From a virus: a stretch of 64,000 nucleotides of DNA. The notes beneath the pieces were generated by a model that saw only the letters and a program-made list of their open reading frames with translations, ran no database searches and was not told the origin of the DNA. This document shows positions 964 to 20,573 of the stretch, piece after piece (position 1 is the stretch's first letter; every line of letters begins with the position of its first letter). The DNA lies in the IMG/VR virus record IMGVR_UViG_3300000062_000003, positions 5,628 to 69,627 of that record. One strand, 5' to 3'. The translations under genes were made by a program, and so were the position numbers.

Positions 964-977
964 CGTTTCAAGTATTA

Positions 978-993
978 TGTTCCACGTGGAACA
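978..993. promoter_or_regulatory. parS: parS-type palindrome TGTTCCACGTGGAACA (copy 1)
   Basis: Perfect 16-bp palindrome matching the chromosomal ParB-binding consensus TGTTNCACGTGNAACA; intergenic. Confidence 0.85.
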
Positions 994-1045
994 ATTTTGT
1001 TATTACTTTGGTTTGTAACATGGCTGTAAGACGTGTTTAATGATG

Positions 1046-1353
1046 TGGAAACTTACGGATTCGAACCGTTACAAACCTTATTTAGTTCCTATTTAGTTCA
1101 CTTGTGGGCGGATTCAAAAAGTATGTCTCCGCCCTTAGTGAGTTTTTTTTGCTGTTATAATTTGCAACCCCAATAATCTCATACGTATTTCGATAGGCTC
1201 AAATTCGGTTAGTATTGTGCATATATTTTCCTCCGCTCATTCTTACATTATTCCGCTATAACATTCATGGAAAAGCTCAAACGTTCCACACCGTTGTTAG
1301 GTAGTACTTGTTGTCATGGCATTTATAAATGTGTCGGTCAGTAGGCAGACCCC
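1046..1353 (-). ncRNA. Possible tmRNA-like or tRNA-like structured RNA
   Basis: 3' end reads ACGG-TTCGAAT-CCGT-A-AGTTTCC-A (T-arm plus acceptor half). Candidate 5' half GGGGTCT at 1353 would give G3:U70, but pairing is imperfect. Confidence 0.3.
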
Positions 1354-1394
1354 TGTTTCTGCAATCAGAGGCTTTAATCCGATGGCTTATACAT

Positions 1395-1410
1395 TGTTCC
1401 ACGTGGAACA
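1395..1410. promoter_or_regulatory. parS: parS-type palindrome TGTTCCACGTGGAACA (copy 2)
   Basis: Second identical 16-mer, extended to a 20-bp palindrome (ATTGTTCCACGTGGAACAAT, 1393-1412). Confidence 0.85.
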
Positions 1411-1553
1411 ATCTTATAAGTTACTAACATCCATCTGCTTATTTTTAATAACTTACGTTATTAATTTCAGCCATCCATTCAAAGAAATTTTAAAAAAACC
1501 TATTTTACAATAGTAAATAATTTGTATCTCGCTCGTACGCTTTATTTATACTA

Positions 1554-1561
1554 CAAAGTAA
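1554..1561 (-). promoter_or_regulatory. Bacteroidota-type -7 promoter element (TTACTTTG variant)
   Basis: Near-match to TAnnTTTG; one of four tandem leftward elements. Confidence 0.5.
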
Positions 1562-1857
1562 AGACTTATTTCTGATATATGAAAACATTTTTAGTTAAAC
1601 TATTTGCTTTTAAATGTTAAAACTATGTTATCAAAATATCTAAGAACGCTTTATGAAGTTGTTTGAAATTAGGTAGGTTCATTAGTTGCTTGTATCAACT
1701 GTATATTGCTATATATCACTACCTTTGCGCCTTATCACTCTACTACTAATTTGCCAATTTTCGTTACAGTTCAGCCAGTTTGTAGCAAGTACCCTCTACT
1801 AGTACCTAATTTCAAGATTTCAACTTTATTTCTATATGTTAGCTTTCTAACACGTTA

Positions 1858-1888
1858 CAAAGTAACAAAGAATATTTTTAAGTACAAA
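1858..1888 (-). promoter_or_regulatory. Bacteroidota-type promoter (-33 TTTG, -7 TTACTTTG)
   Basis: TTTG at 1885-1888, 19-nt spacer, TTACTTTG at 1858-1865. Confidence 0.6.
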
Positions 1889-2071
1889 GGAAAAAGTGTT
1901 AAACTTTTAGTTAAAAATGTAAGTCGGTTTTTTACGGCGTTGGTAGGTCGCTCTCCTAACTTCATTACCCAATCTAATGGTATGGATAACGATAGCATAT
2001 AATTACTTATACAATTAGCCTACATTTCTATTTCAGTACCTTATAAACTTGTTATCTCTCTAACAACAATA

Positions 2072-2079
2072 CAAAGATA
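2072..2079 (-). promoter_or_regulatory. Bacteroidota-type -7 promoter element TATCTTTG
   Basis: Exact TAnnTTTG in AT-rich intergenic DNA. Confidence 0.6.
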
Positions 2080-2300
2080 TGGTTTACTTTTTATATATGC
2101 AAGCATTTTACAAATTATTTTTCAAAAAAGTTTCAATTTATTTAGTAATCTATTTTAAGACGATATAAAAGACTTTATAATTAAATGAATATCTAGTATT
2201 ATAATGGATATAAAGTTTATTAGAATTGATTTATATGTATAAATATAGTGGTCATGGTGGTGGTGTGATTCAATCCCCCTGTCCACTGGATTACACAAAC

Positions 2301-2326
2301 AAAAAAAGGACTACCAAAAGTAGTCC
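2301..2326 (-). terminator. Intrinsic terminator
   Basis: GGACTAC-TTTTG-GTAGTCC hairpin followed by T7 on the minus strand, downstream of CDS 2351-2872. Confidence 0.8.
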
Positions 2327-2350
2327 CTTATCTAAAATATTAATATAGTA

Positions 2351-3878: not shown

Positions 3879-3985
3879 TTTATTGTGTTTTTATGTTTGT
3901 CATATAAATTTTCTATTTTTGCTATCGCCCATATGGTCATGGGCATGCCTAGTACTATTCCTAATATTATTAGTATATCCAACAT
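3794..3985 (-). CDS. Small membrane-anchored hypothetical protein
   Basis: N-terminal TM then basic tail; overlaps both neighbours. Confidence 0.5.
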   Translation of the reverse strand: MLDILIILGIVLGMPMTIWAIAKIENLYDKHKNTIKWEFSKVKKIKIKRKNIKNCLKRIFQQK

Positions 3986-6422: not shown

Positions 6423-6765
6423 ACTGTACTAAAAAAGAAACAGATATAGTAGATGTATTTCCACTTTCAGTAAAGCTTAATCCATGCATTATTACCATAC
6501 CTTCCTTTTCTTCACCTTCTAAATTCACATGTACTCTTGCAGGAGAGTTTCTACAAATCAATTCCCTGGCAAATTCATTAAATTCTAGAACATATTCTTC
6601 AGAAGAGCTTCTGGTCAATAATTCTGCCATGGTTAATGCCCCTACCAGATGAGAAGGTATTGCCTCTGTGGGTAAAATATCTCTAAACAAATAGTACTTT
6701 CCTTCTTTTTCCTTAATAGAAAAATACTCATAGATAAGTTTATGCAACAAAGTTATAAAGTTCAT
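6370..6765 (-). CDS. Hypothetical protein
   Basis: 131 aa, downstream of TAATTTTG at 6790-6797. Confidence 0.7.
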   Translation of the reverse strand: MNFITLLHKLIYEYFSIKEKEGKYYLFRDILPTEAIPSHLVGALTMAELLTRSSSEEYVLEFNEFARELICRNSPARVHVNLEGEEKEGMVIMHGLSFTESGNTSTISVSFLVQCGQESFDIPFHSLQKYE

Positions 6766-6871: not shown

Positions 6872-6950
6872 TGATTAAGTGTGGTCTTTCCTCACAGAGC
6901 ACCTCCCTGTTTTTTTGTCCGAAAAACACCTCTTATTTCGGACATCTTTG

Positions 6951-7022
6951 AGCACTGTGGGAGAGTCGAACTCCCGTATCCACTTTACAAGAGTGGTGTA
7001 ATAACCACTATACGAACAGTGC
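6951..7022 (-). tRNA. tRNA-Thr(UGU)
   Basis: Acceptor GCACTGT/ACAGTGC, anticodon arm CCACT-CTTGTAA-AGTGG, T-arm GGGAG-TTCGACT-CTCCC; CCA not encoded. Confidence 0.92.
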
Positions 7023-7030
7023 CTTCCTAT

Positions 7031-7174
7031 TTACCTATTGGCAAATGTTTTATCTTTGAATTTAGAAGCTACAGCTTCATTAACCTCAAACTTACGTTTA
7101 CCTTTAGCACATATTCCTTCGCGAGTACCAAAGATATTTATAGGTAATGTTGGTTTCATTTTGTTTTTCTTCAT
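7031..7174 (-). CDS. Small basic hypothetical protein (47 aa)
   Basis: Manual translation MKKNKMKPTLPINIFGTREGICAKGKRKF...; fills the gap between a CDS and the tRNA; below the ORF-track cutoff. Confidence 0.5.
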   Translation of the reverse strand: MKKNKMKPTLPINIFGTREGICAKGKRKFEVNEAVASKFKDKTFANR

Positions 7175-17831: not shown

Positions 17832-20573
17832 ATGGAGATTAATAGACGTGTTCGCAATTCATATTTTGGAGCTATACCACCACAAGCAATAAGTTCCAGT
17901 AAGAAAAATAAAAAGCATTATGAGGAAACTATGGATGCTTTGGAATATATTGGCGAACTTCAATATATAGATAATGCTAAGTATGAAGATGTACTTAGAA
18001 TGATTGCAGGACGACAATCTGTTAAAGAAGCACGCGAACTCCTTCCTTATTTAAAAAATGTTACTCCTGACATGCTGGAGGAGCATATACCTAGCTATAT
18101 ACGTCACTATGACCTTATTGGACAGATAATTAATGCTGTTAAGGAGACATATATGCTTACCAGGGATGATTATTTTATTAGTAGTACTGATGAAATATCC
18201 ACCAATGAGTTCATAAGGACGCGCAGTATGTTAATGCAAAATTATCTACAACAATCTTTTAGTAAGGAGCTTGATATGCTACTTCAAGCACAAGGTTATG
18301 AAGTAGATTTAAGTCTGGTACAATTCTCATCAGAAGAAGAGCAAGTAGAGTATTCTGATTTTCTAGAGAGAATGCGACAAGAGCTGACTCCAGAAGGAAT
18401 TGACTTATATATGAAAGATACTTACAAAGTAGCAGCTGTTAGATGGGGAGAAGGTATACTTGATAATGATTTTACTAGATTTAATGAGGAGGAGTTAATA
18501 CGCGAGAATCTCACAGAGTTTTTAGCAGCAGGAAAATGTTTTAGACATTATCGGGTTGGACATGATTTCTATGAACCAGAAGTATGGAGACTTCGTGAAA
18601 CATTCTATTCTAAAGAGTCTAACACAAGATATGCTAACAGACGTGAATATATCGGACGTATATTATTTTTGACAGCCTCACAACTAATAAATAGGTATGC
18701 CGAAAAACTACCCGCAAAGACAAGTGAGAAGTTACAGAGCAGAATGTATGAGGAACCTAATAATAGTCTTCTACCTCCAGAATTAACCACTCCTTTTAAT
18801 AGTGATAAACGCATGTTGATGCCATCATCTGACTATCTAGAGAGGCAGGTAACTAAGAACCTAGAGGATGTATTTAAAATACCCCTGACCTCCTTATTAG
18901 TACAAGATGACTGTAATGTAAGAGCAGTACCAGGATTTTCTAGTAGTACCTTTACAGGCTTACCAGGACATCCTATTGATTTATATAGTGCAGCTAGATT
19001 CCACAATAATGGAGAGCTTAGACAAGACGTATTCCAAGTCACAGAAGCATACTTTACTGACTATCAAAAGATGGGATTACTATGCTTAGAAAATGAATAT
19101 GGGATAAAAGTATTTGAATATGTAACTGATGATTTACTTGCTGACTTTATTAGTGAGTTAGGAATAACACAAATCCAAGCCAAGTCACTTGAGGAAATGG
19201 AACGAAATCCAGAGGCAAATACTGTCACTTGGTTTTATAAACAATATTCCAGAAAAGGCCTTAAAATAAATCTAGATAATATAGGGGAGAAATCATTCTA
19301 TCACACAGAGAAAACACCATATCAGATATATAGTCATAGTAACATGTTCGAAACTATGCACCCTGTTGCAGGGTATATAGGGTCAGGGATAGGGGATAAA
19401 CTTGAGAATACTCAAGCCTTGTATAATATGGCTATGAATCAACTTCAAGATATTGCAGAAAAAGAGGTTGGTGTAATATTTTTATTTGACCAAGCATTTT
19501 TAAGGTCTGACAATAAAGAAGATGGACAATCTTCAGAAGCAATGGAGATGGCCATGAGTATAGCCAAATCGTTAGGGTATTTAGGGATAAATACATCATC
19601 TGATGGATTTGCTTCTGCGATGTCGAGTGGACAATTCCACCCAATCAACTTATCTATGACTGAGAATATGCAGTCAAGAATGCAACTTGCATTATATTAC
19701 AAACAACAAGCATATGACCTAATTGGGGTACGATTAGGACAAGCAGCTCCTCCAGATGCATATAAAACAGCAGAAGGTATTAGAATTGACAGGGAAGCAA
19801 TGTATGCACAACTAGAGCATTATTATTCACAGTTTTCTGACTTCCTTCGTGAATCATATAATATCCATCTTGCAGTAGCACAGTTTTGTCAGAAGAATAA
19901 TAAGGATATTACTCTACAATATAGTAAAAGTGATGGAGAACAAGTATTCCTACAATTTACAGATGATAATTTTGCACTACGCAAATTAGGAGTTAATATT
20001 ACAACTAATGCAAAACAACGCAAACAACAGGAGCAAATGAAACAGTATCTTCTATCTAATAATACTATGATAGAAGACCCATTAATTTTTGCATCCATTC
20101 TGACTTCAGATAATATGACTACAATGTTAGCAGCAGCAAAACAACATGGAATAAAACAGCAAGCTCAACAACAGCAATCTCAACAACATGCTATGCAACA
20201 GATACAAGCACAATCTGAGGCAGCTAAAGACCAAGAATACTTTTCATGGTATCTTGAAGAAACTTCTAAACAACGAGATAGAGAGAACAAGATTCAACTT
20301 GAAGGTATAGAGGCAATGGGACGTGCTTTATATAGAAATGCAGGTACAGAAAACGCTGATGTAATTAATGACCAAGTTAGACAGAGTCTTCAACAGCAAA
20401 AGATAGAGGGAGAATTAGCAGATAAACAAGTAAAGAATGATATTAGAGTTAATGAGAGTCAACAAAGACTTGCTTACCAAGAACGCGCACTAGACCAAAG
20501 AGATAGAGAACTGGATTTGAAAGAGCGTAAGTTAGAGACAGATAAATTTATAGCAACTGTGAATAAAAATTGA
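17832..20573 (+). CDS. Portal protein (crAss-type)
   Basis: 913 aa after terL; long helical protein with Q-rich coiled-coil C-terminus; terL-portal-scaffold-MCP synteny. Confidence 0.88.
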   Translation: MEINRRVRNSYFGAIPPQAISSSKKNKKHYEETMDALEYIGELQYIDNAKYEDVLRMIAGRQSVKEARELLPYLKNVTPDMLEEHIPSYIRHYDLIGQIINAVKETYMLTRDDYFISSTDEISTNEFIRTRSMLMQNYLQQSFSKELDMLLQAQGYEVDLSLVQFSSEEEQVEYSDFLERMRQELTPEGIDLYMKDTYKVAAVRWGEGILDNDFTRFNEEELIRENLTEFLAAGKCFRHYRVGHDFYEPEVWRLRETFYSKESNTRYANRREYIGRILFLTASQLINRYAEKLPAKTSEKLQSRMYEEPNNSLLPPELTTPFNSDKRMLMPSSDYLERQVTKNLEDVFKIPLTSLLVQDDCNVRAVPGFSSSTFTGLPGHPIDLYSAARFHNNGELRQDVFQVTEAYFTDYQKMGLLCLENEYGIKVFEYVTDDLLADFISELGITQIQAKSLEEMERNPEANTVTWFYKQYSRKGLKINLDNIGEKSFYHTEKTPYQIYSHSNMFETMHPVAGYIGSGIGDKLENTQALYNMAMNQLQDIAEKEVGVIFLFDQAFLRSDNKEDGQSSEAMEMAMSIAKSLGYLGINTSSDGFASAMSSGQFHPINLSMTENMQSRMQLALYYKQQAYDLIGVRLGQAAPPDAYKTAEGIRIDREAMYAQLEHYYSQFSDFLRESYNIHLAVAQFCQKNNKDITLQYSKSDGEQVFLQFTDDNFALRKLGVNITTNAKQRKQQEQMKQYLLSNNTMIEDPLIFASILTSDNMTTMLAAAKQHGIKQQAQQQQSQQHAMQQIQAQSEAAKDQEYFSWYLEETSKQRDRENKIQLEGIEAMGRALYRNAGTENADVINDQVRQSLQQQKIEGELADKQVKNDIRVNESQQRLAYQERALDQRDRELDLKERKLETDKFIATVNKN

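Follow-up and report, generated by a model that had tools for sequence, protein, structure and literature searches.

Six perfect chromosomal-type parS sites in one gene arm of a distant crAss-like phage and a possible role for the host ParB

Partition sites on phages, plasmids, and chromosomes

To our knowledge, the borrowing of a host ParB protein by a phage has been shown experimentally only for the Bacillus phage phi29. Phage phi29 carries five parS sites, with Spo0J contributing to the segregation of the phage genome into the prespore (PMC2731898); spore entrapment of the genome is Spo0J dependent (Meijer et al. 2005, as cited in PMC2731898). In our own scan of the phi29 genome (NC_011048), we found four perfect parS sites, all of them the variant TGTTTCACGTGGAACA, together with weaker ones; the perfect sites span 9 kb, with three falling within genes. 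The 0A boxes of phi29 are companion sites for the host master regulator. The phage analyzed here resembles phi29 in being of the virulent type, in having no ParB of its own in the available sequence, and in carrying several perfect copies of the host parS consensus that are identical even at its degenerate N positions. Since the phi29 copies show the same identity, identical N positions in the present sites are no argument against recognition by ParB. The two phages differ in order, in host phylum, and in host biology, the Bacteroidota being bacteria that form no spores. Moreover, whereas the phi29 sites are spread out and mostly intragenic, those described here are all intergenic and promoter proximal and are confined to 5.3 kb of one gene arm.

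The parS clusters of chromosomal ParABS-SMC systems share with the phage array an identical 16-bp sequence, a short multicopy cluster, and intergenic placement; in contrast to them, the phage array has no par genes or oriC context and contains more perfect copies. Chromosomal par genes together with a single parS site can stabilize an unstable plasmid, and P. aeruginosa ParB represses neighboring promoters when it is bound at the intergenic sites parS3 and parS4, members of the same 16-mer family (review, PMC7022226). As at parS3/parS4 and at the OB operators of KorB on the IncP-1 plasmid RK2, the sites described here are candidate ParB-family sites at or near promoter-like sequences of several units, and in this respect the placement of the phage array resembles that of the KorB operators and is unlike that of the phi29 sites. 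RK2 uses one protein for both partition and transcriptional control. It encodes this protein, KorB, and the operator is private to it, whereas the phage record contains no KorB or ParB gene and its site is that of the host. P1 (parABS) and N15 (sopAB/sopC) likewise carry centromere sites on a phage genome, those of N15 being dispersed and linked to promoters. In contrast to the present phage, P1 and N15 have their own ParA and ParB, private centromeres, and plasmid replication and immunity genes, none of which were found in the record examined here. A preprint proposes that the prototypic crAssphage is a phage-plasmid but reports no partition system (PMC10983915).

Sequence and placement of the six sites

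The stretch of DNA that was analyzed (the window; 64,000 nt) comprises bases 5628 to 69627 of the 110,764-bp IMG/VR record IMGVR_UViG_3300000062_000003, for which CheckV gives a completeness of ~73% and both contig ends of which are open. The preliminary description of this DNA had reported two copies of a parS-like 16-mer, and its positions were exact: TGTTCCACGTGGAACA occurs at window positions 978 to 993 and 1395 to 1410, with a start-to-start distance of 417 bp, and both copies are intergenic. A scan of the whole record turned these two sites into six, with perfect copies at record positions 1727, 3235, 3929, 5513, 6605, and 7022, all of them within a 5.3-kb stretch of a single gene arm. 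The window sites are the last two members of this array (record positions 6605 to 6620 and 7022 to 7037), and the other four lie just to the left of the window. No degenerate variants of TGTTCCACGTGGAACA with one or two mismatches were found in the whole 110.8-kb record, no copy appeared in 100 dinucleotide-preserving shuffles of the window, and the sequence is the sole repeated 16-bp palindrome in the record. Outside the array, only two CACGTG hexamers occur in 110 kb, and parS half-sites beyond the full sites are not enriched (7 observed versus 7.1 expected). The earlier assignment of the motif to the chromosomal parS consensus was borne out by all six copies, each of which matches the 16-bp palindromic consensus TGTTNCACGTGNAACA perfectly; the chance that a given 16-bp palindrome is one of the four palindromic forms of this consensus is ~6e-5. 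Judged by its sequence, the phage 16-mer is canonical chromosomal parS. All 16 positions are invariant in the six copies and the flanks are unrelated beyond ~12 nt, which is consistent with reading by a host ParB.

All six sites lie between minus-strand open reading frames (ORFs), in a stretch of which ~64% is coding. The array is located distally on an arm transcribed leftward (record position 1 to ~17.7 kb); this arm holds small genes along with a RecA/UvsX-like gene, a GIY-YIG nuclease gene, an SLT gene, and tRNA-Thr. Every site is at the 5′ edge of a predicted transcription unit (6/6). Three of them are 14 to 18 nt upstream of an ATG, the ORFs concerned starting at record positions 3910, 5496, and 6590 (6590 being the start of window ORF 652 to 963), and the remaining three head noncoding stretches of ~280 to 530 nt. 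The site at window positions 978 to 993 had been placed 15 nt from a start codon; the proximity was confirmed, with an exact gap of 14 nt between the site and the ATG of minus-strand ORF 652 to 963, a 103-amino-acid (aa) orphan with no Pfam match and only a weak PHROG match. The site at 1395 to 1410 is embedded in a 20-bp palindrome, ATTGTTCCACGTGGAACAAT, and lies ~140 nt downstream of a promoter-like repeat at 1551 to 1590. This host-type repeat (D1; AAATGTTT...TTTACTTTGTAG, minus strand) has further copies at 2069 to 2108 and 2931 to 2970, and by its sequence the copy at 1551 to 1590 is the likely start of a transcript that crosses both window sites. The three D1 repeats punctuate a 1.3-kb noncoding zone (window positions 964 to 2350, minus strand). 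Between the two window sites is a 401-nt noncoding spacer (994 to 1394, minus strand) with one parS half-site, GTTCCAC, at 1283 to 1289.

Four of the six copies have a one-sided extension, TAACA-N4, before the site on the gene strand. In a simple sigma-70 scan, exactly these four copies showed a −35-like (T/A/G)TAACA and a −10-like CATAAT or TGgAACAAT, so that sigma-70-like hexamers overlap 4/6 sites and parS occupies the spacer and −10 region of the promoter-like matches, which are found 14 to 18 nt upstream of small genes and, in one case, 278 nt upstream. In the window, the match is ATAACA-18-CATAAT at 974 to 1003 on the minus strand, with parS in the spacer and −10 region, and the same arrangement is seen at record sites 3235, 3929, and 5513. 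Site 5513 is ~30 nt past the intrinsic terminator of the upstream gene.

A phage-specific operator or promoter would likewise show a one-sided flank and a fixed distance to the start codon, and this counts against reading by a host ParB. The sites could, formally, be operators or core promoter elements for a phage factor, either a dimeric regulator of early or accessory operons or a virion RNA polymerase that acts, as in N4, on extruded hairpins, and their identity to parS would then be coincidental. N4 early promoters contain a short conserved hairpin (5- to 7-bp stem, 3-nt loop) upstream of early genes that is read by the injected RNA polymerase; the parS 16-mer could form a 6-bp stem with a 4-nt loop. 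The location of six of six sites at the 5′ edges of units, with three of them at a set distance from an ATG, the coincidence of the TAACA-N4 flank with sigma-70-like hexamers on the same four copies, and the little room left for a separate promoter between the terminator and site 5513 would all fit such a factor. It is nevertheless unlikely, in our judgment, that a phage factor accounts for the sites: a chance identity to parS would be a matter of ~6e-5, and no DNA-binding domain was found among the ~45 ORFs scanned against Pfam and PHROGs. The N4-like version is further weakened by the crAss-like phage phi14:2, in which the virion RNA polymerase makes early transcripts that have no upstream motif in common. 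Phage phi14:2 produces abundant long noncoding RNAs from a place similar to window positions 964 to 2350 (bioRxiv 10.1101/2020.03.07.982082).

The palindromes might also act as RNA, either as intrinsic terminators on the plus strand, where they would stop antisense read-through, or as hairpins in 5′ untranslated regions that control translation. A simple scan does call five of the six sites terminator-like on the plus strand (6-bp stem, 4-nt loop, T-rich tail), and the side with the T-rich flank is the same in every case. However, the predicted hairpins reach −6.3 to −7.1 kcal/mol, compared to −13 for a real terminator of the phage, and RNA elements tolerate compensatory change, yet 16 of 16 bases are invariant in the six copies. 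Since a role as RNA would moreover leave the parS identity unexplained, we regard it as very improbable.

In the preliminary description, the two window sites were also said to flank a candidate structured RNA. This candidate found no support: the 401-nt spacer folds no better than shuffled sequence (minimum free energy z-scores of −0.3 and +0.4), a search of the region against Rfam at gathering or E ≤ 1 thresholds yielded nothing beyond noise, and ARAGORN called nothing but the tRNA-Thr at 6950 to 7022. Within window positions 1009 to 1077, on the minus strand, a 10-bp inverted repeat, GGTTTGTAAC...GTTACAAACC, surrounds a T-arm-like ACGG-TTCGAAT-CCGT; the T-arm-like GGTTCGAATCC, recognized by sequence resemblance, is at ~1058 to 1068. 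This element was called by neither ARAGORN nor Rfam, and, judging by its sequence, it could be what is left of a tRNA or else a tRNA-like element. A miniature inverted-repeat transposable element (MITE) or other insertion bounded by the two window palindromes was rejected, as four more copies occur in unrelated contexts. A chimera with host DNA was rejected as well. GC content is flat (0.30 to 0.33) across the first 20 kb of the record, and the strand-polarized GTCAGGG motif of the phage occurs 8 times in the first 7 kb; given this uniform composition and the presence of the phage's own motif within it, the array region is genuine phage DNA.

Distribution of the site in Bacteroidota and in other phages

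The large terminase (TerL) of the phage is 34% identical to those of epsilon-group csAssE-Sib and of Cellulophaga phi17:2 and ~24% identical to those of the Suoliviridae. The label "crAss-like" given in the preliminary description is thus appropriate in a wide sense only. The TerL of this phage is 706 aa long and intein free; the large terminases of many relatives (P0003, P0014 to P0016, P0027, and others) are 900 to 1,200 aa long and have Hint and LAGLIDADG intein domains. To the right of the leftward-transcribed arm, the remainder of the record encodes a terminase, a portal, structural proteins, a giant BACON-domain protein, PolA, a DnaB-like helicase, and a GroEL-like chaperonin. The chaperonin, of the GroEL/Cpn60 family, is 569 aa long (record positions 102824 to 104533). 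A 494-aa protein (record positions 106015 to 107499) has a treble-clef zinc finger (DUF4379), a Mom-family domain, and an REase_MTES_1575-like stretch, and on the basis of these domains it may be a DNA-modification enzyme. The kinship to Cellulophaga phages and the gut crAss-like phage csAssE-Sib, the BACON domain, and the Bacteroidota-style promoter motifs, which are near consensus in this phage and clear in a relative, suggest that the host phylum is probably Bacteroidota.

The exact 16-mer is present in many bacterial phyla, many Bacteroidota among them. In a sample of 301 Bacteroidota genomes, spread evenly across the phylum, perfect TGTTNCACGTGNAACA was found in 206 genomes at 1 to 5 copies each, compared to 1 of 301 for a reversed control pattern; the site that had been called host type is thus the same as that in the probable host phylum. 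In three checked genomes (G299, G043, and G243), parS flanks or precedes mnmG/gidA, next to ybeY, and the ParB_N genes are elsewhere. The occurrence of mnmG/gidA beside ybeY marks a classical origin-proximal neighborhood. Several Bacteroidota genomes have a fixed pair of parS sites ~1.9 kb apart that brackets mnmG. One Bacteroidota copy is located 12 nt before the mnmG start codon. Proximity to a start codon is therefore no argument against a real parS, and the spacing seen in the phage loses some of its force as evidence for a phage factor.

With six perfect sites in 5.3 kb, the phage carries more than any of the 301 Bacteroidota genomes (maximum, 5). Such an excess would suit a decoy, in which six sites per phage copy titrate host ParB and thereby disrupt the segregation of origins, the loading of SMC, or cell division as the phage takes over, and the gene content is virulent looking (PolA, DnaB, RecA-like, and GIY-YIG proteins, with no integrase seen). 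However, a decoy would have no need for sites exactly at the 5′ ends of the phage's own transcription units, and nothing known of Bacteroidota ParB makes its loss quickly harmful. In addition, phi29, the one studied precedent, uses its sites for carriage and not for attack. For these reasons, we consider a decoy function to be quite unlikely.

Conservation among relatives had been named in the preliminary description as a check on its proposal, and at the distances covered here it was not found. TGTTCCACGTGGAACA was absent at up to two mismatches from csAssE-Sib, phi17:2, phi4:1, and Lbo-JY46 (0/4) and at up to one mismatch from seven Suoliviridae and bajarodcaudo virus 1 (0/8). Since the eight reference Crassvirales genomes lack the site, the array does not represent a general crAss mechanism. 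A scan of IMG/VR with TerL gave nothing close, and the best TerL homologues among 5.8 billion proteins were 76% and 49% identical. The contig of the 76% relative terminates in a repeat without reaching the corresponding region, and at record position ~10.8 kb synteny has already broken down. The syntenic arm of the 49% relative, read out to the contig end, contains no parS, so that the sites are absent from 12 of 12 named relatives and from this arm. The 49% relative does have an analogous 1.66-kb noncoding zone with four clear Bacteroidota-type promoters (L277:11182-12841), plus a tRNA array. Its tRNA gene array, with repeated GGTTCGAATCC T-arms (L133:9900-12000/L277:700-4500), stands where the present phage has small orphan genes. 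No homologues of the 89-aa and 173-aa early proteins were found among the 5.8 billion proteins. The genes adjoining the sites are orphans, and since they are without homologues, conservation of the array is not demonstrable. As far as can be seen from these genomes, the parS array is lineage specific, and lineage-specific presence, being typical of phage regulatory motifs, is a further point on the side of a phage factor.

The motif plus its flank had no other match in IMG/VR and 21 single matches in metagenomes, many of which lie on large contigs of probably bacterial origin. The exact 16-mer is present on at least 120 IMG/VR contigs. Among the matches listed, the 32 long contigs bearing the 16-mer have 1 to 2 copies each, and ParB_N is missing from 31 of them; these 31 include 14 of the 15 that are at least 90% complete. 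Orphan host-type parS looks, on these counts, widespread in phages. A crAss-type terminase profile (phrog_6681) run on five large parS-bearing IMG/VR contigs rang nowhere and was uninformative. One contig (G337; IMGVR_UViG_3300028027_000193) is a 27-kb fragment of a large unrelated phage (GC content, 0.32) with RNR, DnaB-like, and FEN-like exonuclease genes. It has two perfect parS sites (record positions 18228 to 18243 and 18525 to 18540) with nearly the same polar flank, TTAATAACCAAAAA preceding the site, and each site directly adjoins the ATG of its own gene; one of the two genes encodes a 5′-3′ exonuclease. The use of the same 16-mer by an unrelated phage argues against a factor specific to the present one.

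The preliminary description knew of no account of such sites for Crassvirales. With host-type parS on a virulent phage without ParB already established for phi29 and the 16-mer on so many IMG/VR contigs, a claim that the principle is new must be given up. What appears to be new here, at the level of sequence, is the occurrence in another phage order and in a probable host phylum that does not sporulate, the densest array seen in our analysis, and the location of the sites in promoter-like regions.

Candidate readers of the sites and their possible consequences

A six-frame search of the record at E ≤ 1 gave no match to ParB_N (PF02195), AAA_31 (PF13614), PF17762, KorB (PF08535), or CbiA (PF01656), and the ParB_N, HTH_ParB, KorB, AAA_31, and CbiA profiles do detect their targets in control genomes. 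No parA-parB operon adjoining or serving the array was found in the 110-kb record, and no regulator of the KorB/ParB family is encoded in it (PF08535, PF02195, and PF17762). The absence of parA and parB, noted previously for the 64-kb window, thus extends to the whole record, itself ~73% complete. The sites could be read by a ParB- or KorB-like protein whose gene lies in the ~27% of the genome that is missing, and this protein would serve the phage's own partition or global regulation, as in P1, N15, and RK2, and the incompleteness of the record and its two open ends leave room for such a gene. Several observations make this improbable. There is no match to a ParB-type N-terminal domain, helix-turn-helix, or KorB in 110 kb, and element-encoded ParBs usually read private sites, by which they avoid cross talk with the chromosome. 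Moreover, of the complete IMG/VR phages with the exact 16-mer among the matches listed, 14 of 15 have no ParB_N, and phi29 itself lacks a ParB.

With no phage ParB gene in the 110 kb of the record, our candidate for the reader is the ParB of the host. ParB is a CTP-gated clamp. We hypothesize that the host's own ParB would load at the six phage parS sites and would thereby link the phage DNA to the cell's ParABS machinery for segregation. A phage genome that replicates slowly or not at all could then reach the daughter cells in a carrier or episomal state, following the logic of phi29. Given that the sites are at the 5′ edges of units and that four of the six lie over promoter-like hexamers, ParB bound at the sites might also lower the expression of the adjoining units, as P. 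aeruginosa ParB does at parS3/parS4 and as KorB does on RK2. Tethering and the damping of six accessory or early units would together favor a quiet, carried state.

The low chance of the identity (~6e-5), the phi29 precedent, and the presence of the same 16-mer in other ParB-less phages argue for reading by a host ParB, and we think it probable that host ParB binds the phage sites, an estimate that includes the case in which they serve as a decoy. Toward the whole reading, in which binding is accompanied by carriage and by promoter damping, we lean slightly. Of the two consequences, we infer that segregation coupling and carriage is likelier than promoter damping; of the three roles put forward in the preliminary description (partition, titration of ParB, and gating of early genes), the promoter-proximal placement lends gating some weight. 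Against an episomal state, no integrase, repressor, or plasmid replication gene was identified in the record. A bolder proposal would have host ParB double as a borrowed centromere-binding protein and a global repressor, acting through parS in the promoters of six units, so that the phage would reach an inherited episomal carrier state without a partition, repressor, or integrase gene of its own; we see this as possible but doubtful.

The array is known from a single incomplete metagenomic genome without close relatives, and the value of the example is limited to that extent. It bears on how crAss-like phages persist with their hosts for years without classical lysogeny. If host ParB does read these sites, then copying the host centromere would give a phage stable inheritance that needs no phage genes. 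The strategy of phi29, spore entrapment in Firmicutes, would then have a counterpart in a phylum that does not sporulate, and a regulatory twist would be added to it, in that the sites are inside promoter-like regions.
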